The notes under the pieces are model-generated. The model worked only from the letters and a program-made list of their open reading frames with translations. It had not been told where the DNA came from and made no database searches. Shown here in pieces: positions 23,875 to 50,653 of a stretch of DNA of 64,000 nucleotides (position 1 is the stretch's first letter; each line of letters starts with the position of its first letter). The DNA comes from Candidatus Babelota bacterium (lineage in GTDB: Bacteria > Babelota > Babeliae > Babelales > CAIQNR01), in contig CBFHTA010000002.1 of the NCBI GenBank assembly GCA_965658655.1, positions 128,001 to 192,000 on the forward strand, written 5' to 3'. The position numbers and the translations under genes were made by a program.

Positions 23875-23884
23875 AACCTCTCCT

Positions 23885-25381
23885 CTATTTAAACCAACCT
23901 CTAGCTCTTCCTCTTTCTGCTACTTTACTCACGGCTTCAGGATTATCACGTCTCCATTGTTCAAGCTGTTCCGAATCCCTACGCGCTTCTCGTTGTTCAT
24001 CCGTAAGCGACCGACTCCTTCTTGATGGATCTGTTGTATTATCTGTTCCCAAATTATATCTTTCCCTCAACGCATTATTTCTCAATTTTTGGTAAGTTTG
24101 CATATGTTGTTGCTCTCGTTGCATTTTTTGTTCTCGAGTTAACCTTTCAGCTTTTCTTCTATAACCCACTTCTCTATCTAATGATTTCACTTTAGTATCA
24201 AGGTAATTATCACCAGTATGCTGAGTATAATCCTTAGTAGCAAAGTCCTCGGCGCCAAATCCATCGTTCCTTATCATCGCTAGGTTAGCGCTCTTTTTTA
24301 GATCTGCTTCTCTATTTCTTTGATATTCAAGATGCTCTAAAAGAGCAGTTTTTTGTTCAGGAGTTTCAGCATCACGTATAAGTGTGTCTACCTGTTTTTT
24401 ATATTCTATTTTTGCATTACCAAGTTGTTTTCGTATATCCACTCTATTGTCGCCTTCAAACTTGTTATACAAGTTTGAAATTTTATTGAATATTTTTCTT
24501 TCCTCTTTAAATTTATCGTCATAGGAATGAACGTCTTTCTCTTGCTGTTCAACATAACGAGCTCGATCAGCATTATCTTCGAACGTTGCTGACTTCTTCA
24601 ACATTCGCTCTGCTTGCCTTCTTGTAAGATGATCCCCACCCTGTTCACCCTTTGCAATACTCTTGAGCTGAGCTTCTCTTGCACCTTGAGACTTTAATCT
24701 ATCAAGTTTAAATTCTTCTGCAGTATGTGGTGTTACCCCATCTGCATTATTTTCTATGTTTTCTGTTCCACCAGTACCTTCACCTCGCATTCCCTTTAAT
24801 ATTTCTCTGGCACGTGCATGTTCTCCAGATCTTGAACCATCTGCTAATATTTCCCTTGCTTCATCACGCAAGTTATCATTTGATTCTTTAAAATCTTCTT
24901 CAAATGTGTTCCTCACATTGTCCATATCTTTTTCATATCCATCGTACTCAATACTAGAATCGTTTTTTGCATTGTGCCATGCGTTTCGAGCTTTTTCTCT
25001 TTTTTCAAGATGAAAATCTAACCCACGCAAAGTTGAAACTTCAGCAACGTTTTCAGCTATTGAAGCACTTTCTCCTGTGTTGGCAACAGCACTTGAAGCA
25101 TCAACCGAACCTTGCATCTCAACAGGTGTTTTTGAACTGCTCCCTCCGCTAAACAATGAACGGATTCTATCAATAAAACCTCTTCTTTGAGGCTTTATTG
25201 AGGTATTGTTATCAACTACATCTCGCTCGTTGTCACCATTTTGACCATCTCGACCATCTAAATTATCTTGCCGATTCCCATTGTCACCAGTATTGTGTTC
25301 TTCAATCACGCCATCCATAGAAGACAGAGAAAGAGGAATTGCAACTGCTAAAAGCAGTAATGCCAATATACTTTTCTTCAT
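23885..25381 (-). CDS. secreted MD...RGL-family protein
   Basis: First ~120 aa closely similar to 22690..23874; RGLDF at residue 119; charged helical C-terminus. Confidence 0.8.
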   Translation of the reverse strand: MKKSILALLLLAVAIPLSLSSMDGVIEEHNTGDNGNRQDNLDGRDGQNGDNERDVVDNNTSIKPQRRGFIDRIRSLFSGGSSSKTPVEMQGSVDASSAVANTGESASIAENVAEVSTLRGLDFHLEKREKARNAWHNAKNDSSIEYDGYEKDMDNVRNTFEEDFKESNDNLRDEAREILADGSRSGEHARAREILKGMRGEGTGGTENIENNADGVTPHTAEEFKLDRLKSQGAREAQLKSIAKGEQGGDHLTRRQAERMLKKSATFEDNADRARYVEQQEKDVHSYDDKFKEERKIFNKISNLYNKFEGDNRVDIRKQLGNAKIEYKKQVDTLIRDAETPEQKTALLEHLEYQRNREADLKKSANLAMIRNDGFGAEDFATKDYTQHTGDNYLDTKVKSLDREVGYRRKAERLTREQKMQREQQHMQTYQKLRNNALRERYNLGTDNTTDPSRRSRSLTDEQREARRDSEQLEQWRRDNPEAVSKVAERGRARGWFK

Positions 25382-25422
25382 CCTATGCCCTCCATCTTAT
25401 TCGCTTCTTTTGTTCATTACAT

Positions 25423-26562
25423 TTAAAATTTCCACCATTTTCTTTTCTTGTACGTTTCCGCTAAATCGTTCATATTATCATCAAATTCCTGTGCACTGTT
25501 TTGCATTCTCTCTGAAGTTTCTGCCCCCTGTTGTACTCGCTCTGTTCTTTTAGCCATACCTGCATCAAGAGCTGTACCTTGCCCTTGTTGCATCCGGGCA
25601 GCACGTCTTGCTTTTGCTGTATCAAGCGCTGCTCTCATTTCAGGAGTATAACGACCTCTTATTGGCTGACTTTCCAAATTATAACGGTTAATTCTGCCTT
25701 CATTATTCCCTATGTTTTGACCCCTTTGGTTAAGGTCTGAACCTGAAAATCCTTCACTGTTTCTGGATATTCTCGGGTTAAATTGATCTGCTTCATCTTG
25801 GATATCTTTAGCACTTTTCGCTTTTTCGGTTGGTTCCTCTGTTCTTCCAAATAAGAACCAACTTCTTTTTTTTCTCTCTCTAATTTGACTAGTACGCTTT
25901 CTTAACTCATTATTAACTCTATCTATATTTTTTAAATAAAGATCCATTTCAGATGATCTAGATGTACCACCTTCATATCCTTTATTAAAGTCATCTTCCA
26001 GAGCTTTTCTTTTATCGTTCAAAGCGTTCATTTCATCAAACGCTGAATCACTTCTTCCACCCCACCAAGATCTCTTATACTTACCTTTAAAACTAACTGC
26101 ACCATTTTCGTCGATATTTGCAGTAAGATTTAATCCACGATTTGCAGTTCTAGCTATATTTGCTTCTGACTGTTCTGCTGAGGGTGCATTGGATTGATTA
26201 ACGGTTGAATCCATATCTTGGCCAACAATCTCTGCAGGAACATTTTGTGAACCTCTTTCAGGCACATTACTACTTCGGCTAAACCATCCACTTTTTTTTT
26301 CTGTTCGCCTTGTGCTTGTTTCAGTAAAACGACTCATACCATCTGCTAGATTATTTGCCTTTTCCATCAAGCCGTCTGAACTTGGCTGGCTCTCTTGAAA
26401 TCGTTCGATTCGATTTCTAAAGTCGTCTACAGGCGGTGCTTCATTATCACCACTCATACCTAAACCCATACTATCCGGCTCAGTAGGCGGTTCAAAACCA
26501 TCCATTGCGCATAGTGAATTTGCTGAAATAAACAATAGTAAAAATAAGCTTATTTTTTTCAT
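25423..26562 (-). CDS. secreted MD...RGL-family protein
   Basis: Signal ending LCA-MD; RGLNL at residue 142; ends KKRKWWKF. Confidence 0.8.
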   Translation of the reverse strand: MKKISLFLLLFISANSLCAMDGFEPPTEPDSMGLGMSGDNEAPPVDDFRNRIERFQESQPSSDGLMEKANNLADGMSRFTETSTRRTEKKSGWFSRSSNVPERGSQNVPAEIVGQDMDSTVNQSNAPSAEQSEANIARTANRGLNLTANIDENGAVSFKGKYKRSWWGGRSDSAFDEMNALNDKRKALEDDFNKGYEGGTSRSSEMDLYLKNIDRVNNELRKRTSQIRERKKRSWFLFGRTEEPTEKAKSAKDIQDEADQFNPRISRNSEGFSGSDLNQRGQNIGNNEGRINRYNLESQPIRGRYTPEMRAALDTAKARRAARMQQGQGTALDAGMAKRTERVQQGAETSERMQNSAQEFDDNMNDLAETYKKRKWWKF

Positions 26563-35905: not shown

Positions 35906-38900
35906 TTAGAAATTCACCTGGCCACCCTTAACACGAACACGGCTTACATCTTTGCTAAGGTTTCTAAGATTTCTAATATTCCCTCGTTCTTTTCTCGTTC
36001 CCTCTGTATACCCCTGGTACAGATCATTTATTCTTTCTTTCTGCTGCCCAGTCAAGCGATTATAATAATCTTTTCCTCGAAGATCATCTAAGCTTCTGCC
36101 TCTTTCTTGATACTTTTTTGCTCTACCAAGTGTTTTGTTCCAATCATTCGTATTTTTTCTTTGTTTTCTTTTTTCCATGTTCAGGCGTTCTGGATCTGTG
36201 TCAAGATTGTATAGAGACTCTTGTTGTACCTCTTCGGGGCTCATACCACTAATCTGATTAAGCATATCTCTTTGAGGATCTGTAGTGCTCTTTCCTCCAC
36301 TACCAACACTGGTTTCTGACTGTCCTGCAAGAGACGAACTATCATAGTCAGGAACTGTATCATCTTGAGATTCAGGATCCTCACTCCATGACTTATTACC
36401 CGACAATTGATCTGATAATAAGTTACTACTTGCTTCAATACGCGCTTGCTTTGCTTTATTTAAATCTGCTTCAATACGCACTTGCTCTGCTGCGGATTGT
36501 TTTCCTTTATATCCCGATTGGTTTTCTTGCCATCTCTTAAAATTCTCGCCTTTTGCACCGCCATACCTATCTTCCATTCCAGGAGTCTGAACAAAACTAG
36601 AATCAGACTGTGCTGGCTGCGAATCACTTTCTGAAACCCAATCTGGCCTTAGATAATACTTACCTGCAAGATTAATACCATTCTGAGAAGCATACTCTCG
36701 TGTCTCAGTATAAAGTTCTTTTAATTTAGGATTATCTTTAAGTAATTGGCTAGCATCTGCAGTATTTATCTGTTCCATTAAACTGCCAATTTTAGCAACG
36801 GTGTATTCATCTTTTCCATCTTGCTTAATAGTTGCAAGACGACTTTCCAAAAAATCTAATGTTACATTTTTCAGTAGATCCTTAACCTGATCTATTTCAC
36901 CTTGTTCTAACTGACCACTATTACCTTCAAGGAAACTTTCTAATTCTCGTTTTAGTTTACTCAATGCTTTATTTTTTGTTTCAAAATCTCCATAATCTCC
37001 ATTTTTGATATCTTCAAATCGTTGGTTAAAGTCCTGTACTTTTTTTGTACGAGCCTGCTTTGATGCTTCTTGTTGACGCGCAAGAGCTTCTTCTTGTTCT
37101 CGTTGCTGCCTACGATACTCCTCTTGCGTTCTAGTAGCTTCTTCTTGTATTTTTTGCTTTCTAGTAGCTTCTTCTTGCTTTTTCCTAGCAGCTTCTTTTT
37201 CCCTTGATAATCGCTCTTGATTTAGTTTCTCCCTTGCTGTGCTTTCTTGTTTTATACGATTATCAAAATCATCTAACTCTTTTTGAGATACATTAAGGAT
37301 GTTTTGAGATTCATCTATCTGATCTTTAAACTGGTTGTTATTCTTATAAAAATTAAGTTGACCACTAGCACTGTCTACTTTTGCCTGTAAGCGCTTACGC
37401 TGCTCTTGAATGTCTCCCCATTGGTCAACTCGAAGTGTTCCATTCTTATATGCACTGCTATCCATAGCTCTTTGTATGTTTTCAAAACGTTCACCACTCA
37501 CCAAACCTCCTTCTAATTTATTTCTTAAAAGTGATAAATCGTATTTTTGTTGCTTGGTAGTATATTCTCCTTTACGAAGACGACTTTCTACCTGTTGCAA
37601 TCGCTCTTCAGTTGCGTCAGGACCACTTTTACCCAAGTCTTTTGAAACAGAAAGTGAATTAATCCAATTGTTAATTTGTTCTTGTAAGGATTCCCCATTT
37701 TTTTGTTTTTTTGTATACCAGTCAGGTGGATCTTGCTCATAAGTAGTTTGTATTTCTTGTAAACGAACCATTTCTTCTTTTGGATCTAAACCAGCAGTTT
37801 GATTTAAACCAGAACGAATATGCTTATTTAAGTTTTCTGAACGCTCAATTGGATTTGTAGATCTAGATTTTTTCATAAATTCATCTCTTAGACGATCTAA
37901 ATCTTCAAGGGAACTCTTTACCCTACTTTCCTGGGCGTCGCGTAGCGTATCAGCATTCTTTTGATTATCTTCAGAATCAGCAATCTCTTGCGCTTCACGT
38001 AAACTTTTCATTGAAGCATGATTCATCATGTTACTAGAAGGCTCTTCCACCAAAAGAGTTGCTGCTAAAGCATTCTCTTCTTTAACTCTCTGCTCTTCTC
38101 TGCGATCAGCCTCTCCATGAATAAGTGAGTGCCAATCAGAATCTTTTTTTGATGAATCAGTAGTAGCCCACTGATTAACACGATCCCTTAAATTTCCGTA
38201 AGCATCTGTGACGCCATTTTTCAATTCATCAATACCACTCGAAATCCCAGCAAGAGTGTCCGATTGCCCTTCGCGTGTTGAAACACGGCGTGCCAAGTTA
38301 CTCAATCTGTTCAACGTCTCTGCATCAGGAGTATAAACTCCTGCTTTTATACCATCAACACCCGCTTGAGCATATTGCCTTAACCCTTCAACTCCATCTT
38401 TAATTTGACGTTTCAAACCATCACTTGTGTGTTTTGTCCAATTATTTAATCTATCTTTTATCGTTTGCATATGATCATTAACAACTTGTGTTGTACTTCG
38501 CATATTAGTTCTACGTGATTCCAATTGTTTTATCACACTGCTTAACTTTTTAATCTTATCGTCATATTCCGGTTTAGTTAGATCAGTTTTTTTCAATTCA
38601 TATTCAAGATTTTCTGCTTCTGCCGATAATGCATATATCTCTTTGCGTGTTTTTCCTCCACCCCAATAATCATTAAATCGATCTGCCCAGGTTTTCAATA
38701 CCCCCTTTTTTTCATTATTATTAAAATTATCACTAAAGCCTACCTGATCACCGTCATACGTAACACTTTTACCTCTAAACACCTTGTTGTTTAATTCTCC
38801 AAGGTTGAGACCTCTTTCTGCTTCTTTTGTTGTCATTGGACTTTTATTATCATCACCTACACTAATGCTAGAGGTTGTACCAATATCTGTGCCAGTTATA

Positions 38901-39172
38901 GCTTTTGGTGCTTTTGCTGATGAAGCTTTACCCGAAAATTGCCACCACTTACGATGACTCTGAGACTGCTCCCCTGATTGGCTCGATAACTCGCCATAGT
39001 TTTCGCTAAGATCTCCTTTATTACCCTCTATTTCTGCTTCCTCTGAAGATTGTTCTGGGCCATCAGCTGAAGTAATAGCAGGATCTACAGGTGCCTTAAC
39101 TGGAGCATCCATAGAAAACACTGGTGAAATATTTATTAACAAAACGATTAATAATACTTTGAAACTCTTCAT
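35906..39172 (-). CDS. secreted MD...RGL-family coiled-coil protein (1088 aa)
   Basis: Signal ending PVFS-MD; RGLNL at residue 120; long charged helical regions. Confidence 0.85.
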   Translation of the reverse strand: MKSFKVLLIVLLINISPVFSMDAPVKAPVDPAITSADGPEQSSEEAEIEGNKGDLSENYGELSSQSGEQSQSHRKWWQFSGKASSAKAPKAITGTDIGTTSSISVGDDNKSPMTTKEAERGLNLGELNNKVFRGKSVTYDGDQVGFSDNFNNNEKKGVLKTWADRFNDYWGGGKTRKEIYALSAEAENLEYELKKTDLTKPEYDDKIKKLSSVIKQLESRRTNMRSTTQVVNDHMQTIKDRLNNWTKHTSDGLKRQIKDGVEGLRQYAQAGVDGIKAGVYTPDAETLNRLSNLARRVSTREGQSDTLAGISSGIDELKNGVTDAYGNLRDRVNQWATTDSSKKDSDWHSLIHGEADRREEQRVKEENALAATLLVEEPSSNMMNHASMKSLREAQEIADSEDNQKNADTLRDAQESRVKSSLEDLDRLRDEFMKKSRSTNPIERSENLNKHIRSGLNQTAGLDPKEEMVRLQEIQTTYEQDPPDWYTKKQKNGESLQEQINNWINSLSVSKDLGKSGPDATEERLQQVESRLRKGEYTTKQQKYDLSLLRNKLEGGLVSGERFENIQRAMDSSAYKNGTLRVDQWGDIQEQRKRLQAKVDSASGQLNFYKNNNQFKDQIDESQNILNVSQKELDDFDNRIKQESTAREKLNQERLSREKEAARKKQEEATRKQKIQEEATRTQEEYRRQQREQEEALARQQEASKQARTKKVQDFNQRFEDIKNGDYGDFETKNKALSKLKRELESFLEGNSGQLEQGEIDQVKDLLKNVTLDFLESRLATIKQDGKDEYTVAKIGSLMEQINTADASQLLKDNPKLKELYTETREYASQNGINLAGKYYLRPDWVSESDSQPAQSDSSFVQTPGMEDRYGGAKGENFKRWQENQSGYKGKQSAAEQVRIEADLNKAKQARIEASSNLLSDQLSGNKSWSEDPESQDDTVPDYDSSSLAGQSETSVGSGGKSTTDPQRDMLNQISGMSPEEVQQESLYNLDTDPERLNMEKRKQRKNTNDWNKTLGRAKKYQERGRSLDDLRGKDYYNRLTGQQKERINDLYQGYTEGTRKERGNIRNLRNLSKDVSRVRVKGGQVNF

Positions 39173-41840: not shown

Positions 41841-41917
41841 TGGTGCGCCTGGCAGGACTCGAACCTGCAACCAACGGATTCGAAGTCCGGTACTCTATCC
41901 AATTGAGCTACAGGCGC
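41841..41917 (-). tRNA. tRNA-Arg(TCG), CCA encoded
   Basis: GCGCCTGTAGCTCAATTGGATAGAGTA-CCGGA-CTTCGAA-TCCGT-TGGTTGCAGGTTCGAGTCCTGCCAGGCGCACCA. Confidence 0.93.
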
Positions 41918-42102: not shown

Positions 42103-42813
42103 TTAATCGCGCCCAAGTAACCTATACAAAAACGCTTGATCATCGCCTGCTAAATAACCGAATGGTACTAAACCGCTCTCTCCCAAAGATTCTTTTAGAA
42201 TGCGGTCTCCCTCTTCATTCACAACAACATCATTGAATGCTGCTGCTCCCGGCTCTCTTAAATCTTTGTCGGCTGAAGAAGATGCTGCGGTACTCTTTCT
42301 ATCTTCAAAACCTTTTTTACAAGTCTTTATTTTTTTCAAAAAACATTTTGATGTATGAGTCTTAAACATATCTGGCCTCATATAACTACCTTTGCAGTAA
42401 GAACAAAAATAACTGGGACTAGCACCGTGCTTTTTACTTTTTTCCACATGCCTTTTAACCTCATCTGGTCGTGCAAAAGAATTATTACATTTAAGGCACC
42501 CAAACCTAATTTTTAATTTCTTTAAGGCCATAACTTCAGCATTATGTTTTCTTGAAAATTGTTTTTCTCCTACGCTCCATGTCCTTGTACGTGGAACGTA
42601 AGTTAACAGTTCTTGAGCTTTCTTCTTATAATTATCTTCTGTTAAGCCTTTATCGTAAGGCAGCAATAAATTATATCCATCCATTTCATAAGACATATAT
42701 TCAGAATGAGATTGCGTTTTTTTTCCCTCTAAAGGAATATTTGCAGCCGAAATGTTAGTAATAGATAAAATAATTCCACTAAAAATAATAAAAAAACTGT
42801 TTTTATTCTGCAT
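42103..42813 (-). CDS. secreted protein with two C2H2/C2HC zinc-finger-like motifs
   Basis: Signal ending ISA-AN; CLKCNNSFARPDEVKRH and CSYCKGSYMRPDMFKTHTSKC. Confidence 0.75.
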   Translation of the reverse strand: MQNKNSFFIIFSGIILSITNISAANIPLEGKKTQSHSEYMSYEMDGYNLLLPYDKGLTEDNYKKKAQELLTYVPRTRTWSVGEKQFSRKHNAEVMALKKLKIRFGCLKCNNSFARPDEVKRHVEKSKKHGASPSYFCSYCKGSYMRPDMFKTHTSKCFLKKIKTCKKGFEDRKSTAASSSADKDLREPGAAAFNDVVVNEEGDRILKESLGESGLVPFGYLAGDDQAFLYRLLGRD

Positions 42814-42912
42814 TAAAAATTGCTTTCTTTAGTTGTTGCTGATCTTCCACTGAATCATCCTTACCCTCTGCTTTATTATTCTGAGTAGGATGAAAGTTTT
42901 TATACGAAAACC

Positions 42913-43635
42913 TTAATCACGCTCCAGTGAACTATCCAAAAACGCTGGGTCATCGCCTTCTAAATAACCGAATGATACTAAACCGCTCTCTCCCAAAAAT
43001 TCTTTTAGAATGCAATTTGCCTTTTCATTCAAAAAAACATCATTGAATGCTGCTGCTCCCGGCTCTCTTGAATCTTTGTCAGCCGAAGAAGGTGCTGCAG
43101 CGCCCTCTCCATCTTCCATTTGTTTTTCTAAAGTATCTTTTTTTCCCCAACAGCACTCTTTTTTATGCCCCTGAAGAAGATCTTCTCTCCAAAACTTCTT
43201 GTTACAGTCACCACAACAATAGCTGGGTTTACAGCCATACTTCCGACTTCTTGAAACATGCGTTGCAAGCTTACTTACTTCTGAAAAAGACTCATCACAA
43301 AAAAGGCACCCAAACCTAACCCCTAAATCTCTTAATACCACTATTTTAGCTTGCTTTTTTTCTGTGTATTCTTTTTTTCCTGCTCGCCATTTTTTTGTAT
43401 GTGGATTTTGTGTTACTAGCTTGTTAGCTTTATCTTTATAATTATGGATTGTTAATCTTTTGCCGCAAGGCAGCAATACATTATACTTTGGCTTTTTATG
43501 AACCACATATCCCTCAACTCTCATTGTTTTTTGCTGTAGAGGAGGATGAATAAAAGGTATATTTGCAGCCGAAATGTTCATACTAGATAACATAATTCCA
43601 CTAACAATAATAAAAAAACTGTTTTTATTCTGCAT
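42913..43635 (-). CDS. secreted zinc-finger protein, tandem paralog of 42103..42813
   Basis: Near-identical termini; CLFCDESFSEVSKLATH and CGDCNKKFWREDLLQGHKKEC. Confidence 0.75.
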   Translation of the reverse strand: MQNKNSFFIIVSGIMLSSMNISAANIPFIHPPLQQKTMRVEGYVVHKKPKYNVLLPCGKRLTIHNYKDKANKLVTQNPHTKKWRAGKKEYTEKKQAKIVVLRDLGVRFGCLFCDESFSEVSKLATHVSRSRKYGCKPSYCCGDCNKKFWREDLLQGHKKECCWGKKDTLEKQMEDGEGAAAPSSADKDSREPGAAAFNDVFLNEKANCILKEFLGESGLVSFGYLEGDDPAFLDSSLERD

Positions 43636-44386
43636 TAAGAATTATCTCCTCTAGCTGTTTTTTATCTTTCATTAAATTATCCTCCAGTTCATGGTTGAGT
43701 TGACGATGCAATAGTTGCAACTCTTTACACTGTTTGCTTGGTTTTCTCTGTAAAAATGTACTAATTATATTTTGATGTTCTATAGTTTCTACGTGATCTT
43801 GATAACTCTCTCTACTAGCATAAGAAAAAAAAGTTCCTAAAGACAAACTGCACTCAAGACATTCCCTCTTTTTTCCTTTTAGCTTTCTGCCTTTTTGGAT
43901 TAATGATATTAACTTTTTATGGGTGGAGACCGAAACTTTCTGTGCGGGACCATCTTTGCCTTTTTTCACTCCCAATCCGTTATTCATTACTGAATTAACA
44001 AGAGCACCTTTACATTCTTTTTCTATATGTCTATAACATTTCCCATACCTATCAAAAAGACACTTACAAGACTTACACTTCCAACTGGTCAAATGACTCT
44101 CTACATGAGCATTGATTCCGCTTTTTGCCATTCCTTTACCTTGTCTACCCAAAGATAAAGTGCAATCCGGCCAAAGACACTCGTATCTACCTTCACCATA
44201 AGGCTCTATCCACTTGTCTACGCCTTCGACTAATCCACATAATGGCTTTCTTGTAATGTTATCTATCTTGACCATTAAGTTTCTTCTATCCCTGTATGCG
44301 CGTGAATATTCACATTTCTCATTTTTATCTGCTGCCCCTACTGATGATTGATTAATACATAAAAATAAAAGAACTATCCGCTTCAT
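43625..44386 (-). CDS. secreted protein with three zinc-finger-like motifs
   Basis: Signal-like MKRIVLLFLC; YECLWPDC...HVESH, CKSCKCLFDRYGKCYRHIEKEC and CLEC...HVETIEH. Confidence 0.7.
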   Translation of the reverse strand: MKRIVLLFLCINQSSVGAADKNEKCEYSRAYRDRRNLMVKIDNITRKPLCGLVEGVDKWIEPYGEGRYECLWPDCTLSLGRQGKGMAKSGINAHVESHLTSWKCKSCKCLFDRYGKCYRHIEKECKGALVNSVMNNGLGVKKGKDGPAQKVSVSTHKKLISLIQKGRKLKGKKRECLECSLSLGTFFSYASRESYQDHVETIEHQNIISTFLQRKPSKQCKELQLLHRQLNHELEDNLMKDKKQLEEIILNAE

Positions 44387-44662
44387 ATGCGCCTTCCACA
44401 AATAAAATTACATTATTTTTGTGCATAGACTTTCCATGCGTTATATAGATATAAAACATTTTATTTTATACGCAACACTAAAGGATAATTCAATACTCTA
44501 AGCAAGTCGCTTCTTATAGCACAAACAAAAATCATGGTGCTCATAAGCAACGTAATGAATCATATTGCCCTCACTTTAGACATTTAGCCACAACCTGAAT
44601 GTAAATACTAGTGGATGTCACCTTGATTCTTTAGTAATTCTAATTCTCCTCCCTATTGACTA

Positions 44663-45229
44663 TTATCTTTTATGTGCCATTTCTCGAGAAGTAGCAAATC
44701 CACTATAAGAAGTATAAAAAGGACCTTTCAAAGATTGCTGCCACCCGTCAACCTCATGATGTTGAGAAGCTATATGTGAAGCCATTTTTTCATAATTACT
44801 ACGGGTCTCTTTGCACACAGCACACTGAGTTTTTCCATATTTTAACATCTCAACATTGCATCTCAAAGAGGTTCTTAACCTATCTTGTTCTGTTATTGTT
44901 AATAACTTTAAAGATGCACCATCTTGTTTATAAGCATACTCAAAAATATCATCCGATACGCGTGCACCAATTAATGCAACTTTCTTCGTTTTACCACGCG
45001 CTTTCTTAGATACACTTTTCTGAGCTCCTGAATCATTACTAGATTTGTTTTTATTTAAACCGGATTCTCTTTTTAATCTTGCTTCTTCTTTCTTTTTTAC
45101 ATCAAGCATTTCAGCCATTATAGAAACTACGCTTTTTTCTCTATCAGTAAGAACAGCTTGAGTACCTCCAGACATAACAGATACTGTCACCAAGCTTAAA
45201 CCCATAAAAAATACTAATTTCTTACTCAT
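44663..45229 (-). CDS. secreted basic protein with one C2H2 zinc finger
   Basis: Signal-like N-terminus; CAVCKETRSNYEKMASHIASQH (C-x2-C-x12-H-x4-H). Confidence 0.7.
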   Translation of the reverse strand: MSKKLVFFMGLSLVTVSVMSGGTQAVLTDREKSVVSIMAEMLDVKKKEEARLKRESGLNKNKSSNDSGAQKSVSKKARGKTKKVALIGARVSDDIFEYAYKQDGASLKLLTITEQDRLRTSLRCNVEMLKYGKTQCAVCKETRSNYEKMASHIASQHHEVDGWQQSLKGPFYTSYSGFATSREMAHKR

Positions 45230-45445
45230 TTTGATTCTTCTCCATATTGACTATTTGTAAAACAACAAGATTAAGTCTAACAAGAAAGCCTATCCCGTCA
45301 ACTAATTAGCTTATTCAAGCATAAAAGTAAATAAGGTTAAAATGACTTTATGTGTAATTTAACATAAGTATAAATACAACCTTTTGACGACATGTACCCC
45401 AGGGTCTATACTTATAGAAGGTGTTTAAATCGATTGGGGGATACC

Positions 45446-46057
45446 ATGTTGAGTGAAAAAAATCTTATTCGCGACGGATTGTGTTTAGTTGTTTTGGTGT
45501 TTTTAGTACGCCATGTATTTACGCAACAATATATTAAACACGCATCAAAAAGAACGCTCGCAAAACATGCTGTAAATATACAAATGAAAAAAATTAAAGC
45601 TAGTGTTTCTAACACTGCTTCAAAAGTGAAAAAGCATGTTAAAAAAGGGGTGCGTACTACCATCAATTCAAAACAAGCTCAACTAGAAGAACATACTAGT
45701 GCTTTATTACAACAACTTAAAAATGCACAAGAAGCCCTTGATAAAACAGATCTTTTAACAGACAAAGAACGCACAACATTAGCACTCGACATTAAAACCA
45801 TTCGCTCTCATATTGAACACATAAAAAAAGAATCTTCTAAAGAACCTCACGAGTTGGGATTGCTCTCTGGACCAGCGTTAACAACAGCTAAAGAAGTACA
45901 CAAACGCAGCTTGGATAAAAAGCTATTACAAGCTACAAACAACACCAGCTTTGTTCTTTTAACCCTATACAACGAAATATTGGGACAGGACAAAAAAATA
46001 AACCCCGCAACATCTGTGTCACAAGGTTTACAACGTAATCAATCACTACTTATTTAA
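45446..46057 (+). CDS. hypothetical membrane-anchored helical protein
   Basis: GGGGGA RBS before ATG 45446; one hydrophobic segment followed by a basic coiled-coil-like region. Confidence 0.55.
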   Translation: MLSEKNLIRDGLCLVVLVFLVRHVFTQQYIKHASKRTLAKHAVNIQMKKIKASVSNTASKVKKHVKKGVRTTINSKQAQLEEHTSALLQQLKNAQEALDKTDLLTDKERTTLALDIKTIRSHIEHIKKESSKEPHELGLLSGPALTTAKEVHKRSLDKKLLQATNNTSFVLLTLYNEILGQDKKINPATSVSQGLQRNQSLLI

Positions 46058-46162
46058 TTTAGTTATCATCTGAAAGTTGCTGGCTTTCTTGGCTCAGCGT
46101 ATCCGTTACTTCCTGATTTGCTGCACTTCCAAAGTTTCTTCTACCGGTCGTATTTTTTTAGT

Positions 46163-48133
46163 TTACTCGTCAAGGTCATCTGGGTCATACGGCTCATAAT
46201 TTAAATCATCTTGCATACCATGTTTTGGACCTTCAACCTCTGTCTGCTCGGGTGTAAAAATATTATTTCTAGCTTCATTTTCAGCTTCTAACTTCTTCTG
46301 CGCTGCCTCCATATCTTTTGCCCGGTTGCTTTTGATTCTTGCTTCATCAGGTCTCTTTAAAAATGATTGAAATTCTTTTTCTTCTTCCTCTTCATTCAGG
46401 ACTCTATCACCATCATCATCATCGCTTCTACCATTACCTTCCATCTCACTCAAAGCACGATCCATCTCGTTAGGATCGAAATCATTAGGATCGACATCAT
46501 TATCATCGGTACTACTTGAACCTTGTTCCCCTAAATCTAAAATATTACCATCGGTGCTACTTTCATTTCTATCGAAATTACCAAGATTTAAAGTTTGAGA
46601 ACCATCATCGTCATCGTCATCATCGTCGTCATCCCAGTCATCCTCTTCGCCATCATCGTCGTCATCCCAGTCATCCTCTTCGCCATCATCATCGTCATCA
46701 TTATTGCTGCTATTAGACACATTTTCAGGTGCCTGATTGCGATCACGAAGAGCATTTTTCAGGCCTTCAGCAAGAATATCACTATAGCTATCAACAGTTG
46801 CAGCGTCTGAATAAGGTGTTAACAACTCTTGTGCTTTTGTTTCAAGTTTATCCACTTTCTTACTTAACGACTTTCGAGAACGATTATCTTCAGGTAACTT
46901 TTGAATTTTTTCTTTAAGACCATCAACTCTTAATCGTAGCATTTCATCTTTTATGTCTCGTACCTTTATACGAAGTTGTGCATCATTCGGACGAGCCTTT
47001 TGTTTAGCCTCTACATCTGTAAGTTCTATTTGCTTTACACTAATAGATTCCGCTGTTTCTGGTGATATATTGTATATGGTGGCATTACGCTGAGCACCTT
47101 CAACCATCTCTTCTTGTTTTCTCAATGCACTATCAATATCTGAATTAAGATTCTCAACAGAAGTAAAAAGCTTTTCTCTTTTTTTATCAACCGCATCAGC
47201 GGCATCTCTACCAACTTTCCCTAATGTTTTGCCACTCTTTCTTTCTTCAATTTCACGATCAAGGCGAGCAATACCCCCTTTTTCAAGAGCACCTTGACTT
47301 ACCTTGCCATACTCTCTTAAACGACCTTCAATTGTATCCAAATCTGCATCTGTTCTTGCTCTGTCTATTTCCCTTGAAAAACTATCAACATTATTGGCAT
47401 CTCTCCCACTCCGGGTCCACGTACTTTCTGTTAATTTCTTACCATCTGTCTCTTCTCGAAGTACTTGGTTTGCACGATCTTCAAAATTTTGTAGTTGTTT
47501 CTCAACAAGAGCTTTTTGTTCTTCTGTAGGATTGTCTTCTTGTACCCATTGATCTATTCTCTTATTAATCTCATTAACTTTTTCTCTAATTACACCTAAT
47601 GATGACTCTGAAGTATCTCTCACTACACCAGTCCATGAAGAATCTATAAAATTAGACGATTGTTCTATTTCTTTAACAAAATCTTCAGCTTTTACAGAGT
47701 TATCCACATTTTTAGCTTCTTCAATTCTTCCCCTGTCACTTTCAAATTCTAGTCCACGCTCAGAACTTATAGCATCCGTAGCAACCTGTTCATTTGCACT
47801 TTCTTGCTCACTACCTTCCTCTAAACTCGAAGTTCCACCTTGCGCAACGTCCTGTAAACTTTCTAAAGATGTTGAACTTCCTGACGGGAAATCCACCATT
47901 CCTTCATCTGAAGATGTACGTGAAGGATTTTCATACAAACTTTCTGTATCATCATCATCATGATCAGGATCTACATTTTCGGGATCATCTTGCTCGCTAT
48001 CAGAATCACCAGTCTGTCTAGTTATATCAGTAGATACATCATGGTCTGGGGCAACGTCAATACCATCCATCGACCATAGAGCAATTGAAGTACTTAATAA
48101 TAAAAATAAAAGTAAACGAATATTTTTTTTCAC
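46163..48133 (-). CDS. secreted MD...RGL-family acidic protein with WASP-like central-acidic motif
   Basis: Signal ending LWS-MD; RGLEF at residue 126; ILAEGLKNALRDR followed by (DDDDGEEDDWD)x2. Confidence 0.8.
   Translation of the reverse strand: MKKNIRLLLFLLLSTSIALWSMDGIDVAPDHDVSTDITRQTGDSDSEQDDPENVDPDHDDDDTESLYENPSRTSSDEGMVDFPSGSSTSLESLQDVAQGGTSSLEEGSEQESANEQVATDAISSERGLEFESDRGRIEEAKNVDNSVKAEDFVKEIEQSSNFIDSSWTGVVRDTSESSLGVIREKVNEINKRIDQWVQEDNPTEEQKALVEKQLQNFEDRANQVLREETDGKKLTESTWTRSGRDANNVDSFSREIDRARTDADLDTIEGRLREYGKVSQGALEKGGIARLDREIEERKSGKTLGKVGRDAADAVDKKREKLFTSVENLNSDIDSALRKQEEMVEGAQRNATIYNISPETAESISVKQIELTDVEAKQKARPNDAQLRIKVRDIKDEMLRLRVDGLKEKIQKLPEDNRSRKSLSKKVDKLETKAQELLTPYSDAATVDSYSDILAEGLKNALRDRNQAPENVSNSSNNDDDDDGEEDDWDDDDDGEEDDWDDDDDDDDDDGSQTLNLGNFDRNESSTDGNILDLGEQGSSSTDDNDVDPNDFDPNEMDRALSEMEGNGRSDDDDGDRVLNEEEEEKEFQSFLKRPDEARIKSNRAKDMEAAQKKLEAENEARNNIFTPEQTEVEGPKHGMQDDLNYEPYDPDDLDE
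46621..46686. repeat. 33-bp perfect tandem repeat x2 inside an Asp-codon tract
   Basis: CATCGTCGTCATCCCAGTCATCCTCTTCGCCAT repeated twice. Confidence 0.9.
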
Positions 48134-48142
48134 AACAAATCC

Positions 48143-48994
48143 CTACTTGCGTAAAACATACCTCTTAAACCACTCCTGCGCTAATTCTTCTGCCTTCTTT
48201 TCATTCTTTTTATATAAAGCTTGACCAGTTTTTTTTGCATTCTTAATAAACTCATCTTTAAATCTTTCTTTAATTCTCTTAGCTTCGATACTATTTGCCC
48301 AACTTTCTTTACCAGCCTGATCTATAATACCTTCTTGAGCAGCTTCCCAATAAGGGGTATTTGCAGCGCCACTTACAATAGCACGTATACCAGATGCATC
48401 GCGTTTATCTTCAATATATTGCGACAGTGCTTTTACATCATCTGGATGAAATTGAGACAAAGGTAAAAGCGCCTCTACCATTGCTTTTGGATCTTTGTTA
48501 AATTCATCATCTATAAATCTTTGCCATTCTCCTCTATCTTTTGCACTTAATAATCCAACAGTGTCGTCTCCAACTTGCGTTGCATTATTTAACATTGCTT
48601 TATCTGCTTTTAGTTGTTCTTTTGCACTATCTTTACCGAGCGCACGGTTCACCATAGAAGAAGCTTTACTGGTATAACTTGTGACAAGATGATCTCCAAG
48701 CAGAACCGCCCCATCAACAACTGTATTTACGACTGGAACATCTAGGTCATTTTCATAGGGACTAGGTGAATCAACATTTAGTTTTTTTCTTGGAGGCGGA
48801 GGTGGACCATACATTTCTGGTTCACTATACTCCACTGGTCTTGGTTCTGGACCATATACAGGAAGAACCGGGCGAAACTCTTGACTACGTTCATTTGAAT
48901 TGTACACTTTATCGTATGAACCTGATTGTAGTAAAAGAGGAACCATACTCACAAAAGCAAACAGGATCAAACCTATACATACCTTTTTATTCAT
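48143..48994 (-). CDS. secreted Pro-rich hypothetical protein
   Basis: Signal peptide; YGPEPRP and YGPPPPPRKK. Confidence 0.75.
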   Translation of the reverse strand: MNKKVCIGLILFAFVSMVPLLLQSGSYDKVYNSNERSQEFRPVLPVYGPEPRPVEYSEPEMYGPPPPPRKKLNVDSPSPYENDLDVPVVNTVVDGAVLLGDHLVTSYTSKASSMVNRALGKDSAKEQLKADKAMLNNATQVGDDTVGLLSAKDRGEWQRFIDDEFNKDPKAMVEALLPLSQFHPDDVKALSQYIEDKRDASGIRAIVSGAANTPYWEAAQEGIIDQAGKESWANSIEAKRIKERFKDEFIKNAKKTGQALYKKNEKKAEELAQEWFKRYVLRK

Positions 48995-49047
48995 AATTCC
49001 TCTCCTCTTTTAATACTACTTAACCTTTTATGTATTCAATCTCACTT

Positions 49048-50550
49048 TTATTGATGTCTATTATAATACTCCATTAATGTTTGCTTGCTATAAACTCCAG
49101 TATCAGGAATGCCACTCCATCCTTGTCCATTTTTTGGATCTGAAGAAGGATCTCTTTTAAGTTTATTTGCTATAACAGCATAATGATTTAACCATTCCCT
49201 ATCCTTCAAAGACAATGCTCCAAATTCCTTTCCCACACGCGTAGGAAGAGGTAATCCTGGAAGCGATGAAGCTTTCCTTATTGGTACTAAGAGATCTGTA
49301 TCTGATTCAGAAGCAACTGGAGTTGTTTGGTATCCAGTAGTGGAAGTCGCTGACAATTGCATACCTGGTTGCAAAAAAGCTGGAGTTTTTTTAGAAGCCG
49401 GTGGTGGTGGTGCCATTCCAGTTCTACCAGTCGGAAGGTCATCAAATACTCCTAGCGCTGCTTGTCCTGATTGCGAACTATAACCTGTAGATATGCTCGG
49501 TTGATACAATGATCCAGGTCCTGGTTGTTCTGGTTGTGGACCATACTCTGCAGGTCTTCTTCTTAACGCTCCTGAATTTTGTCCTCCTGGAGCTGCTTGT
49601 CCTGATTGCGTTGACAATTGAGACTTTACACCAAACCATTTTAATGCTCTATTAATCCCTTCTCTAGCAGCCATATCTGCACCTGATTTAAGATCCCCTT
49701 TAATATCTTTATAAATCTCTCTACCTAAACCTCCAGTTTCTTTACCAATTTGAGTATTTGATGCCCATTGTGCACCTTGTTGAAAACGTTCTCTAGCAGC
49801 ACCCCAGTTACTTGATGTGTTTGAATTTTCAGTAACAGCATTCAGCACTTGCTTCTGCTCTTCCAGTGAGAAATCAAAGAAACCTTTAACCCGTGCTAAT
49901 TGTGCACCTGTATAACCTTTCTCTTTGACATAGTATTGTATCCATTGCTGCACAAGATTTTCTTCTTGTGGATCAACTGAAGTTGAGCTCGCAGTAGAAC
50001 TTACTGCAGAATTAGTAGCAGTTATTTGAGATGTATTTGCACCACTATTTCTCTGTTGTAACGATGCGTAAAAGGAAAGAGTTGTTTGATCTGATAAACT
50101 TAAACTTTGATAATTTGGTTCTGCTTTTAACTGGTCAACTGATATGTTATTTTGAGCAATAAACTGCTTCCATTGCTCCAATTCAGCTGGACTTAAATTT
50201 CCATCATCACTCTCATAACCAGAGCTCTGATCTAATAGATTTTGTTGATCAGCACTTGTTTGGAATCCAGATTGAGAAGCACTTTGATAATTAAGCAAAT
50301 CATTCTGTTGTTCAGGAGTAAAGCTATCAAAACCATCTTCTTGTGCTACGTCATAACCTTTATTATTATCTATCCAATCTTTCCAAGGCTGTGTTGCTGG
50401 ATCACTAGCAACCTGTGGCGCTTCTAGCGATGCTCCTTGATATGTACTAGCACCTTGTAAAAATTCGGGTCCAGAACCAGCTTGCCCATCGGTAACCCCA
50501 ACAAGGGTCAAGATTGCTAACACCAAACATGTCATATTTAACTTTTTCAT
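49048..50550 (-). CDS. secreted Gln/Ser/Pro-rich protein with W-containing helical repeats
   Basis: GGAGGA RBS before MKKLNM; three similar ~35-aa units; YGPQP and PPPP motifs. Confidence 0.75.
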   Translation of the reverse strand: MKKLNMTCLVLAILTLVGVTDGQAGSGPEFLQGASTYQGASLEAPQVASDPATQPWKDWIDNNKGYDVAQEDGFDSFTPEQQNDLLNYQSASQSGFQTSADQQNLLDQSSGYESDDGNLSPAELEQWKQFIAQNNISVDQLKAEPNYQSLSLSDQTTLSFYASLQQRNSGANTSQITATNSAVSSTASSTSVDPQEENLVQQWIQYYVKEKGYTGAQLARVKGFFDFSLEEQKQVLNAVTENSNTSSNWGAARERFQQGAQWASNTQIGKETGGLGREIYKDIKGDLKSGADMAAREGINRALKWFGVKSQLSTQSGQAAPGGQNSGALRRRPAEYGPQPEQPGPGSLYQPSISTGYSSQSGQAALGVFDDLPTGRTGMAPPPPASKKTPAFLQPGMQLSATSTTGYQTTPVASESDTDLLVPIRKASSLPGLPLPTRVGKEFGALSLKDREWLNHYAVIANKLKRDPSSDPKNGQGWSGIPDTGVYSKQTLMEYYNRHQ

Positions 50551-50653
50551 AGGTCTTCCTCCATTATTAGACCAAAACATTATTACTATCTGAAATATTA
50601 ACATGCCAGATAAGTAAAAAACAAGAAAAATATTAAAAAATCTTATTGTAAGC

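Follow-up and report, generated by a model that had tools for sequence, protein, structure and literature searches.

Genes A, B, C and D, four adjoining minus-strand ORFs in a 64,000-nucleotide stretch of DNA (hereafter the window), encode proteins that each combine a predicted Sec-type signal peptide with one to three C2H2-like zinc-finger motifs. On balance, and with some reserve, we favor the interpretation that these proteins are fast-evolving, species-specific secreted effectors of an intracellular Dependentiae bacterium that bind DNA in the nucleus of the host. We regard them as putative young derivatives, specific to their species and diverging fast, of C2H2 proteins whose export is a habit of the whole phylum; they also appear to be part of a zinc-finger arsenal of the phylum that is far larger and probably acts on host genes.

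The initial annotation of this region had described four co-oriented genes, each with an N-terminal signal and one to three fingers, and had proposed their products as host-directed candidates aimed at the nucleus. The ORFs (confirmed at the coordinates in Table 1), a crude signal-peptide rule and our count of the fingers bear out the description. The proposal is supported by the Dependentiae relatives of the organism, by canonical finger arrays in the same genome, by the structural matches of A and B, by a type II secretion system (T2SS)-like gene set and by a search for Dsb and VKOR proteins that found none, and the four proteins are retained as candidates. The genome measures 0.93 Mb with 37% GC, and its closest named relatives by GlyRS are Candidatus Dependentiae (61-65% identity), the cultured members of which are intracellular pathogens of protists according to the excerpted account of Chromulinavorax destructans (PMC6561590).

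Table 1. Features of the four-gene locus, given in positions of the window.
Feature	Position	Strand	Description
tRNA-Arg(TCG)	41841..41917	-	ARAGORN; 185 nt downstream of gene A; edge of the variable block
Gene A	42103..42813	-	ORF, 236 aa; signal peptide, basic region, two fingers, acidic C-terminal tail
A acidic/hydrophobic C-terminal tail	42106..42288	-	residues 176-236; conserved with B
A finger 2	42343..42411	-	Y-x-C-x2-C-x12-H-x3-C (C2HC); separated from finger 1 by five residues
A finger 1	42427..42504	-	F-x-C-x2-C-x3-F-x5-V-x2-H-x6-H; helix FARPDEVKRH
A signal peptide	42745..42813	-	residues 1-23, MQNKNSFFIIFSGIILSITNISA, followed by ANI; from sequence and the crude signal-peptide rule
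Gene B	42913..43635	-	ORF, 240 aa; same architecture as A
B finger 2	43153..43221	-	Y-x-C-x2-C-x12-H-x3-C; helix FWREDLLQGH
B finger 1	43231..43314	-	C-x2-C-x12-H; Tyr at the position of A's fourth ligand, next Cys at H+9
Gene C	43625..44386	-	253 aa from ATG; signal peptide, three fingers, basic tract, helical C-terminus
C finger 3	43775..43867	-	C-x2-C-x18-H-x5-H; common to relative P0006
C basic tract KGRKLKGKKR	43865..43894	-	7 basic residues in 10
C finger 2	44012..44083	-	W-x-C-x2-C-x12-H-x4-C
C finger 1	44093..44185	-	Y-x-C-x4-C-x18-H-x3-H (YECLWPDC...HVESH)
Gene D	44663..45229	-	ORF, 188 aa; signal peptide, Lys-rich helical region, one C2H2-like motif
D finger	44759..44830	-	C-x2-C-x12-H-x4-H (TQCAVCKETRSNYEKMASHIASQH)
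D basic tract KKARGKTKK	44981..45007	-	6 basic residues in 10

Zinc-finger motifs of the four proteins

We counted eight fingers, two each in A and B, three in C and one in D. The C-x2-C core previously reported for seven of them was confirmed, with C-x4-C in finger 1 of C, and the motifs quoted at that time are all present (CNNSFARPDEVKRH in A, CNKKFWREDLLQGH in B, YECLWPDC...HVESH in C and CAVC-x12-HIASQH in D). With respect to classical ligand spacing, finger 2 of A, B and C ends in a C2HC arrangement (H-x3/4-C), the spacing is x18 rather than x12 in C fingers 1 and 3, and the finger of D is the sole one of the eight with the full C-x2-4-C-x12-H-x3-5-H spacing. A Pfam scan, one of the checks suggested in the initial annotation, returned C2H2-clan matches for all four proteins (E-values of 6.4e-4 for B, 4.2e-3 for D, 0.026 for A and 0.038 for C), but all were sub-threshold, and no C2H2 model reached its gathering score on A, B, C or D. 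The best bit scores against their cut-offs were 20.7/27 for B (zf-C2H2_4), 17.7/26.9 for D (zf-C2H2_2), 15.7/27 for A (zf-C2H2_4) and 14.5/27 for C (zf-C2H2_aberr); families named for C2H2 were the best match of B, C and D and three of the four listed for A. Against a profile of the canonical fingers of the same genome, A and B gave non-significant matches (E 0.42 and 2.3, respectively), and C and D were absent at E<=10.

Comparison with sequences of solved structures separated the eukaryote-type assignment into a part that stands, for A and B, and a part that does not reach significance, for C and D. All 44 PDB matches of A at E<=1 are zinc-finger chains, the best being Zif268 (3.9e-4), with the A helix FARPDEVKRH aligned to FSRSDELTRH. 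For B there were 69 matches at E<=1, the best 60 of which are all zinc-finger chains; the leading ones are Aart (3.4e-8) and SNAI1 (1.5e-5), and the alignment spans finger 1, the five-residue linker and finger 2. At the level of sequence, the two-finger module of A and B is thus significantly similar to solved eukaryotic C2H2 fingers. All four A and B fingers have the hydrophobic core (F/Y-x-C, F/Y at Cys2+4 and V/F/L at Cys2+10), and three of the four recognition helices carry Arg(-1) together with Asp(2), a pair known from Zif268 structures as a mark of DNA contact. The four ligands of A finger 2 are invariant in B. In finger 1, A has an irregular fourth ligand (H-x6-H), and Tyr stands at this position in B.

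The remaining two proteins gave weaker matches. Finger 1 of C matched finger 1 of SWI5 at E 0.051 with a six-residue gap, and C finger 2 has the first two aromatic core positions and a Cys at +10. A search of 1.84 billion representatives recovered two relatives of C (5e-19, 39% identity; 1e-18, 34%), both with N-termini that by eye are hydrophobic and signal-peptide-like, and in the three-sequence alignment all eight ligands of fingers 1 and 2 are invariant. The finger assignment of D is weakly supported: its five best PDB matches, all to zinc-finger chains of Kaiso, lie at E 0.19-0.22, which is not significant, a 69-residue piece reached E 0.0017 with zf-C2H2_2, below the cut-off, and an Arg occupies the usual core Phe position (Cys2+4), so that D lacks the hydrophobic core. 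AlphaFold modeling of C and D from single sequences gave low confidence (pLDDT 37.6 and 43.7, respectively) and was uninformative on the finger fold, which structure prediction, another of the suggested checks, therefore left unconfirmed.

C2H2 fingers are also able to bind RNA or protein, and the four products may be secreted and host-directed with degenerate fingers that bind protein or RNA, and not DNA, in the cytoplasm or nucleus of the host. This would agree with fingers that are few (one to three) and irregular (H-x6-H, C2HC, x18), with the best Pfam families of D (zf-C2H2_2 and ZNF451-type), which are not classical DNA-reading arrays, and with the zf-met and jaz clusters, dsRNA-binding types, among the Atlas neighbors of C; the evidence for export serves both readings equally. 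We nevertheless regard it as unlikely, given that A and B align best to the DNA-reading proteins Zif268, WT1, SNAI1 and Aart, five-residue linker included, and that the Arg(-1)/Asp(2) pair recurs in most of their helices.

Export and the wider set of finger proteins

In each of the N-termini of A to D, a basic n-region is followed by a hydrophobic stretch free of charged residues and by a cleavage site of small residues, and all pass the crude rule. By the same rule 363 of the approximately 872 genes scanned in this genome (~42%) begin in a signal-peptide-like manner, so the signal peptide alone says little. More informative is its association with fingers: a strict motif (C-x2-C-x12-H-x3-5-[HC]) is present in 13 of these approximate genes, A to D among them, compared to 0.52 +/- 0.64 in 50 shuffles, and all 13 of the encoded proteins have a signal-peptide-like N-terminus. 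As the 13 represent about six independent families, the probability of this arising by chance is roughly 0.42^6, or ~0.005.

The same genome encodes eight canonical TGEKP-linked C2H2 arrays with signal peptides, together with one two-finger protein. The five array proteins that were scanned scored 71-133 bits with zf-C2H2 (1.6e-39 to 4.6e-20 in three), and one canonical array matches ZFP568 at 6.7e-92. The basic motif KKRKR or KRKK is found in these Krueppel-type arrays; six of them, of the MNKVWML type, all contain an acidic stretch, and five of the six contain KKRKR. Across the phylum, Pfam zf-C2H2 matches were present in 46 of 261 genomes, mostly in ORFs that begin with signal peptides, and among the ORFs of relatives with at least two strict fingers, 31 of 39 have a signal-peptide-like start and three more a hydrophobic N-terminus. 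We found no account of an exported zinc-finger arsenal of Dependentiae in the literature searched.

The basic patches KGRKLKGKKR in C and KKARGKTKK in D, previously taken as NLS-like, are present, but this interpretation barely rises above the base rate. Each of the four proteins contains at least one K[KR]x[KR], yet so do 34-39% of the proteins of the genome, which makes such tracts weak evidence. Among proteins of 150-300 residues, the basic density of the C tract is reached by 4% and that of the D tract by 15%; the C tract is the only rare one.

With regard to the route of export, genes for a GspC-like protein, a PilM-like protein and two secretins lie clustered in the genome, which also encodes one GspE/PilB-type ATPase. 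A T2SS-like set is present, the parts of which could equally serve type IV pili.

Exported Cys-rich proteins are often disulfide-bonded, and A to D could be bacterial envelope proteins of the periplasm or surface, whose Cys and His residues capture metal or form disulfides and which have no target in the host; most of the ~42% of genes with signal-peptide-like starts necessarily encode envelope proteins. Several observations make this improbable. Disulfides had been raised as an objection at the outset, and we found no DsbA, DsbB, Thioredoxin_4 or VKOR in this 95%-complete genome. The conserved His and Cys residues at classical finger spacing favor zinc over disulfides, a role in the periplasm is implausible for the canonical TGEKP arrays with KKRKR that the genome also encodes, and the basic center and acidic tail of A and B are arranged as in transcription factors.

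Divergence of the locus and its gene models

A and B are tandem paralogs with 52% identity, unevenly distributed. The signal peptides share 93% of nucleotides over 27 codons (85% of amino acids) and the tail block (alignment columns 179-240) 87% of nucleotides and 73% of amino acids; the tail of A has net charges of -4 and -2 in its last two 30-residue windows, and no further copies of it were found elsewhere in the genome. Identity falls to 39% in the finger block, where dN/dS is ~1.1, yet all seven shared ligand residues are kept. dN/dS is ~1 across the whole of A and B, which relaxed constraint would fit as well, and dS in their center is ~0.5-0.6. The 236-residue product of gene A is present identically in a public protein collection (P0002). 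D is an orphan gene as judged by homology: a search of 5.8 billion sequences returned only D itself, among 121 genomes of the order it was found in its own only, and it was not found in the same-genus genome G001. No orthologs of A to D were found in this same-genus genome, where the syntenic block holds quite different secreted proteins. The spacer between D and C contains the relic of another gene start.

Neutral drift of recent effector-gene copies in a hypervariable island, with the finger-like motifs as relics of functionless duplicates, would account for a dN/dS near 1, the ligand lost from B finger 1, the gene-start relic, the missing orthologs and the different content of the syntenic block in G001. 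We assign this reading a similarly low probability to that of envelope proteins. Four frames have stayed intact over 188-253 codons at 37% GC despite the dS in the center of A and B, the ligands of A and B have been kept in a block where 39% of residues are, and their signal peptides and tails are conserved. In the family of C the ligands persist at 34-39% identity, and SD-like sequences lie ahead of B, C and D.

The start sites also bear on whether the four are cytoplasmic bacterial regulators, prokaryotic C2H2 regulators such as Ros/MucR being known, with true starts downstream and untranslated "signal peptides"; this is very improbable, given that the signal-peptide regions are coding-like and are conserved between A and B, that independent public gene calls support the signal-peptide-bearing starts of A, C and D, that SD-like motifs are found ahead of the starts, that no ROS_MUCR match was obtained and that the combination of signal peptide and fingers recurs in the ORFs of relatives. 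Gene C has an alternative TTG start at 44401 (258 aa), and the public call uses the ATG 15 nt downstream (253 aa), which has GGAAGG 7 nt upstream; the start of gene B overlaps the stop of gene C by 11 nt.

Proposed mode of action and comparison with known systems

Under the favored interpretation of A to D as effectors that bind host nuclear DNA, the chain that we infer runs from cleavage, secretion and host delivery through zinc binding and nuclear import to DNA binding and an effect on transcription. The signal peptide would carry each protein across the inner membrane, and release from the cell would follow by the type II secretion apparatus, by vesicles or by lysis. Inside the host cell the Cys/His fingers would fold around zinc, the basic tracts would favor nuclear entry, and the fingers would bind to DNA of the host; A and B would do so with tandem fingers whose recognition helices are of the Arg(-1)/Asp(2) type. 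Transcription may then be acted on by the C-terminal tail, which is acidic and conserved in A and B and helical in C.

We tentatively extend this to the Dependentiae arsenal as a whole, which may be a fast-diversifying, Sec-exported set of TAL-effector-like transcription-factor mimics (signal peptide, acidic activation-like stretch, NLS and TGEKP array) that rewrite the expression of the protist host and originate in eukaryotes or in giant viruses of the same hosts, with A to D as short, divergent offshoots. If true, a bacterial export signal would have been fitted onto fingers derived from eukaryotes or giant viruses, yielding programmable mimics that act in protist hosts.

A and B share with Zif268/EGR1, WT1 and SNAI1 the C-x2-C-x12-H spacing, the core positions, the five-residue linker and the Arg(-1)/Asp(2) helices. 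Unlike eukaryotic C2H2 factors, A to D are bacterial, have a Sec signal peptide in front and just one to three fingers, often with a last ligand that is Cys or irregular and with x18 in two C fingers, and they score below the Pfam thresholds. Ros/MucR proteins are bacterial, cytoplasmic and DNA-binding, and have a single Cys2His2 finger of shorter spacing within a larger globular domain. They resemble A to D in bacterial origin and in the Cys2His2 zinc site, but none of the four proteins has a ROS_MUCR Pfam match at E<=1, in agreement with the initial annotation, which had set them apart from this type.

Nucleomodulins, like the role proposed for A to D, are proteins of bacteria that act inside the nucleus of the host. 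To our knowledge, the secretion signals of those described are of type III, IV or I and are not Sec signal peptides, and their DNA-binding modules, unlike those of A to D, are not C2H2 fingers; the literature searched on nucleomodulins and C2H2 yielded no bacterial C2H2 nucleomodulin, and that on Dependentiae zinc fingers nothing relevant. Within the same phylum, the excerpted account of Chromulinavorax gives the share with a signal peptide as 44% for CDS and 78% for ankyrin proteins, reads the latter as secreted effectors that manipulate the host, and in the excerpt makes no mention of C2H2 fingers (PMC6561590). The ankyrin proteins of C. destructans thus likewise have a Sec signal peptide before a eukaryote-type domain, with ankyrin in place of the finger.

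The C2H2 effectors HTR1 and HTR2 of Magnaporthe oryzae (198 and 110 aa) reach the inside of host cells, localize to the host nucleus, bind promoters and repress immunity genes, as described in the excerpted report (PMC10423181). The logic proposed for A to D is the same, whereas HTR1 and HTR2 are fungal, use eukaryotic secretion and have experimentally determined functions, those of A to D being predicted from sequence. The TAL effectors of Xanthomonas combine a modular DNA-reading repeat with an NLS and an acidic activation domain. This layout resembles both that of the canonical arrays, with signal peptide, acidic stretch, KKRKR and fingers, and the basic center and acidic tail of A and B.

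Zinc fingers of genes A to D

Genes A, B, C and D are four consecutive minus-strand ORFs between tRNA-Arg(TCG) and a divergent plus-strand ORF at 45392; for gene C, the ATG listed in the table is the start in the public gene call. SD-like purine runs lie upstream of B, C and D. In all four proteins the N-terminus opens with a short n-region of basic character, followed by a hydrophobic stretch that lacks charges and by a site of small residues (for example, putative cleavage between MQNKNSFFIIFSGIILSITNISA and ANI, MKRIVLLFLCINQSSVGA and ADK, and MSKKLVFFMGLSLVTVSVMSGGTQA and VL). All four pass a crude signal-peptide (SP) rule. The initial annotation's observation of four zinc-finger genes with signal peptides is confirmed; its count of eight fingers, seven with C-x2-C, was borne out, and every finger or basic string that it quoted was found in the sequences. 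Across an approximate 872-gene set, a strict finger motif (C-x2-C-x12-H-x3-5-[HC]) occurs in 13 proteins, including A, B, C and D, compared with 0.52 ± 0.64 in 50 shuffles. The GC content of the block (34-36%, against 37% for the genome) gives no clear sign of recent foreign origin. Promoter and terminator scans stayed at shuffle level (17 vs 15.1 and 3 vs 2.4), and a search for self-addressed operator boxes at A to D turned up nothing beyond the A/B duplication and short repeats at chance level.

Positions of genes A to D, the bordering tRNA gene and the canonical finger arrays of the same genome. Positions without a prefix are those of the window; C1 and C2 are contigs of the genome, C2 carrying the window.
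Feature	Position	Strand	Length	Fingers or remark
tRNA-Arg(TCG)	41841-41917			One border of the A-D block
Gene A	42103-42813	minus	236 aa	Finger 1, F-x-C-x2-C-x12-H-x6-H; finger 2, Y-x-C-x2-C-x12-H-x3-C
Gene B	42913-43635	minus	240 aa	Finger 1, C-x2-C-x12-H, then Tyr at the position of A's last His; finger 2, Y-x-C-x2-C-x12-H-x3-C
Gene C	43625-44401	minus	258 aa from TTG; 253 aa from ATG at 44386	Finger 1, Y-x-C-x4-C-x18-H-x3-H; finger 2, W-x-C-x2-C-x12-H-x4-C; finger 3, C-x2-C-x18-H-x5-H
Gene D	44663-45229	minus	188 aa	C-x2-C-x12-H-x4-H
Five tandem arrays	C2:157-3897			At the contig end, 124 kb upstream of the window
One array	C1:520256-520966			Stops 38 bases short of the end of contig C1
Two arrays	C1:478541-479954

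In the Pfam scan, C2H2-named families were the top match of B, C and D and three of the four listed matches of A, but every score was sub-threshold (zf-C2H2_4 at 6.4e-4 for B and 0.026 for A, zf-C2H2_2 at 4.2e-3 for D, and zf-C2H2_aberr at 0.038 for C). Against PDB sequences, B gave 69 matches at E<=1, the 60 listed all being zinc-finger chains, with Aart (3.4e-8) and SNAI1 (1.5e-5) best, and A gave 44 at E<=1, the best being Zif268 (3.9e-4). These alignments span finger 1, a five-residue linker and finger 2, placing the linker GASPS or GCKPS against TGQKP of Zif268, and the Zif268 helix FSRSDELTRH against FARPDEVKRH of A. By sequence, the fingers of A and B are of the classical C2H2 type but divergent, falling below the Pfam threshold and passing the PDB comparison.

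For C, the PDB comparison gave SWI5 finger 1 only (E 0.051), and the whole D protein gave nothing finger-like; a 69-aa C-terminal piece of D matched zf-C2H2_2 at 0.0017 and the Kaiso fingers at a non-significant 0.19. The structure prediction that the initial annotation had proposed as a check was run on C and D, and single-sequence AlphaFold2 was uninformative for both (mean pLDDT 37.6 and 43.7). In the ESM Atlas, nine of the ten best family-carrying matches of C belong to the C2H2 family or clan, with low recognition (2192) and listed scores of 0.91-0.93, and every score for D was below 0.9; we treat these matches as leads only. A resemblance of D to eukaryotic eS25 (residues 61-133, E 0.017) falls in a Lys-rich helical region and was set aside as probably compositional.

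Finger proteins with predicted export signals in the genome and the phylum

The same genome encodes eight Krueppel-type C2H2 arrays of four to seven fingers each, most of them joined by TGEKP- or TGERP-type linkers. Five of them were scanned; their E-values run from 1.6e-39 to 1.7e-20 for zf-C2H2 and reach 1.4e-45 for zf-H2C2_2. ZFP568 is matched by one array (6.7e-92), and all eight begin with a signal peptide. Six are of an MNKVWML type with an acidic stretch after the signal peptide, five of these carrying KKRKR before the fingers, and the remaining two have KRKK behind the fingers. The strict motif is also matched by a protein with two fingers at C1:465550, and looser fingers occur at C1:66955. 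We rejected the idea that A to D are recent derivatives of the arrays: an HMM of 34 canonical fingers from this genome, an over-specific profile, gave E-values of 2.3 for A and 0.42 for B and nothing at E<=10 for C or D. A locus search with one canonical array was uninformative as to array origin, its three loci lying in Endozoicomonas, archaeon and Christensenellaceae MAGs, in which host contamination is possible.

All 13 strict-motif proteins of this genome are SP-like, compared with 363 of the 872 genes (42% by the crude rule). Since paralogues are not independent, we counted the finger proteins as about six families, for which the chance of all being SP-like is roughly 0.005. Among 261 genomes of the phylum, all from one order, Pfam zf-C2H2 matched at E<=1e-5 in 46, all over the cut-off, representing 29 of 145 genera and 10 of the 15 genomes of the window's family. 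At E<=0.001, 57 of 201 sampled genomes matched; among control genomes, 1 of 14 matched. Some genomes of the phylum reach 30-40 matches or more, grouped in tandem clusters of genes; examples lie at G180:C1:234186-241557 and on contigs G092:C41, G007:C28 and G119:C69/C73.

We also examined 30 loci from relatives, where leaving out ORFs with fewer than two strict fingers retained 39 ORFs in 27 loci. An SP-like start was found in 31 of the 39, at the first start codon in 22 and at a later in-frame start in 9, a class somewhat inflated by the choice among starts. Three others had a hydrophobic N-terminus only, three lacked a start codon before the fingers, and the two with none of these were both cut by the locus edge. 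Taken together, a whole phylum of protist parasites appears, judging from its gene sequences, to export C2H2 fingers behind Sec signal peptides. A to D belong to a broader and more striking phenomenon, most of it beyond their coordinates, and within the wider finger family they are the most derived members and the least certain.

Two of the relatives' proteins illustrate the range of architectures. One (L113, G005:C10, 535-2607) has 690 aa, a signal peptide, a low-complexity region rich in Q and A, and C2H2 fingers that are irregular and number about seven, and it shares its contig with GlyRS at a distance of 6-7 kb; the other (L116, G069:C13, 1483-1980) has 165 aa, a signal peptide, an acidic stretch and two fingers (zf-C2H2 1.2e-7). 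A separate observation concerns a subset of exported proteins in which Met-Asp/Glu, often as S/A-M-D-G/A, directly follows the signal-peptide h-region (22 of 362 SP-like proteins vs 11 of 509 others, and 4 of 362 in a control window). Cases include window genes at 4679-12472, 22690-26562, 35906-39172 and 46163-48133 and the array genes, and the feature recurs in relatives' finger proteins (L104-L140); A to D do not have it. It may be the vestigial start codon of a gene that gained its signal peptide 5', or a lineage-specific sorting motif.

Duplication and turnover at the locus

A and B are tandem paralogues with 52% identity, in a repeat unit of about 810-822 nt that includes both flanks, and no third copy of any part was found in the genome. 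Nucleotide identity is 93% in the signal peptide and 87% in the C-terminal acidic tail, and 61-62% in the centre that includes the fingers (dS ~0.5-0.6, dN/dS ~0.9-1.1). All seven ligand residues common to A and B are invariant, and the two differ most in the finger helices (recognition helices FARPDEVKRH/FSEVSKLATH and YMRPDMFKTH/FWREDLLQGH). Such a pattern would be expected if a scaffold is kept while the reading surface diversifies; relaxed constraint may also explain the divergence.

Two further observations touch on copy number. In run X2, one contig of depth 3 links the 5' part of B to the region upstream of A (43605 to 42784) through a back-joint of 33 shared bases, 822 nt back. The joint reflects either recombination between A and B or an additional copy in the population sampled, or else an artefact of k-mer assembly. 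In the 261-nt spacer between D and C, positions 44626-44664 form a 39-nt copy (79%) of the SD-plus-start region of D (45217-45255), with ATT replacing ATG, and it looks like the relic of a further gene copy.

Word-indexed homologue searches with B retrieved only B and A, those with C only C, and, among 5.8 billion sequences, those with D only D. Of the order's 121 genomes, D was found only in its own, and it is an apparent orphan. An exhaustive HMMER search of 1.84 billion representatives recovered two relatives of C, P0005 (5e-19) and P0006 (1e-18), whose N-termini are hydrophobic and signal-peptide-like by eye; the eight ligands of the first two fingers do not vary among the three proteins, whose overall identity is 34-36%, and finger 3 is kept in P0006. 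A third match, P0007, was discarded as a spurious repeat protein aligning only around GEGKYECLW. The C-family profile matched 7 of the 261 genomes at E<=0.001, the window's own included; the other six were rejected, being weak (best 1.4e-6) and located in other finger proteins.

No orthologues of A to D were found in the same-genus genome G001 (90% complete), in which B gives a weak finger match only. The syntenic block there, next to TlyA, HtrA and GlyRS, holds no finger gene and carries other SP proteins with abundant acidic runs, so the A-D block is a hypervariable run of genes for exported proteins. The interval 45392-50604, which separates the finger genes from TlyA, encodes orphan proteins; one of these, 656 aa long, combines a signal peptide with very acidic runs of poly-Asp. 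The syntenic counterpart of the interval (L017, G001:C10:1-7251) encodes different SP proteins, again rich in acidic runs; this is a hypervariable island of putatively secreted proteins. Absence from G001 and the strong divergence of the A/B helices show the fast turnover of the family.

A candidate role in the host nucleus

The genome has 928,713 bp (95% complete, 37% GC; the window's contig has 239,840 bp), those of relatives measure 0.7-1.1 Mb, and its closest named GlyRS matches are from Candidatus Dependentiae (61-65% identity). Window DNA occurs in two DNA runs from a single study with the label marine plankton metagenome; one run may be the source, and the second carries identical sequence at low depth. 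No RNA run is listed among the sequencing runs holding the stretch. In Chromulinavorax destructans, a cultured marine member of the phylum, signal peptides are present on 44% of CDS and on 78% of the proteins with ankyrin repeats, and these are interpreted as secreted effectors (PMC6561590).

Signal peptides point to Sec, which would carry A to D across the inner membrane. The outer-membrane step may use T2SS-like or type IV pilus-like parts encoded in the genome: C1:179310-187846 (L120, 9310-17846) encodes a GspC-like gene, a secretin (913 aa), a PilM-like gene, a 185-aa ORF and a second secretin (878 aa), and there is one GspE/PilB-type ATPase; these could form either machine. Two long secretins side by side are unusual for a 0.93-Mb genome.

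Inside the host, fingers of the A/B kind would bind DNA. They have a classical core with Arg(-1) and Asp(2) in three of four helices, a pair that contacts DNA in Zif268 structures, and by net charge per 30 aa both proteins are basic in the centre and end in a tail that is acidic and hydrophobic, the layout of a transcription factor. The claim of nuclear localization signals (NLS) is weak: K[KR]x[KR] occurs in each of A to D but also in 34-39% of the genome's proteins, and only the C tract KGRKLKGKKR is unusual in the genome. The host-directed, nucleus-aimed interpretation of the initial annotation is supported as a candidate, and we regard the full chain, in which A to D are secreted, nuclear and DNA-binding, as somewhat probable.

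Among the rival readings, it is unlikely that the four proteins are host-directed but bind RNA or protein. Less probable again is that they are envelope metal or disulfide proteins; no DsbB, DsbA, Thioredoxin_4 or VKOR was found in the 95%-complete genome, which weakens the idea of periplasmic disulfides. We hold it equally improbable that they are drifting relics. Misannotated cytoplasmic regulators are the least credible reading by far, and a Ros/MucR identity found no Pfam match.

If the secreted, DNA-binding reading is true, it would offer a testable route for the control of protist hosts by tiny-genome intracellular bacteria and a clear example of how a eukaryote-type domain was refitted to be exported by bacteria. 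The diversified finger proteins would also form a natural library, with targets that could be read from their helices. The C2H2 finger is the commonest eukaryotic DNA-reading module, here with ordinary Sec signal peptides. In the literature searched, which left subscription journals and supplements outside, we found no report of zinc-finger or C2H2 proteins in Dependentiae, whose genome papers could still list zf-C2H2 in domain tables, nor of a bacterial C2H2 nucleomodulin or effector, endosymbionts and intracellular bacteria included.

Bacterial effectors that work in the host nucleus are already known, and A to D are a candidate variant of this kind. The closest bacterial case to the proposed function is that of the TAL effectors, modular-repeat DNA readers that transformed both plant pathology and genome engineering. 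The nearest functional counterparts overall are HTR1 and HTR2 of Magnaporthe, C2H2 effectors that move into the nucleus of the plant cell, where they repress genes of immunity (PMC10423181).
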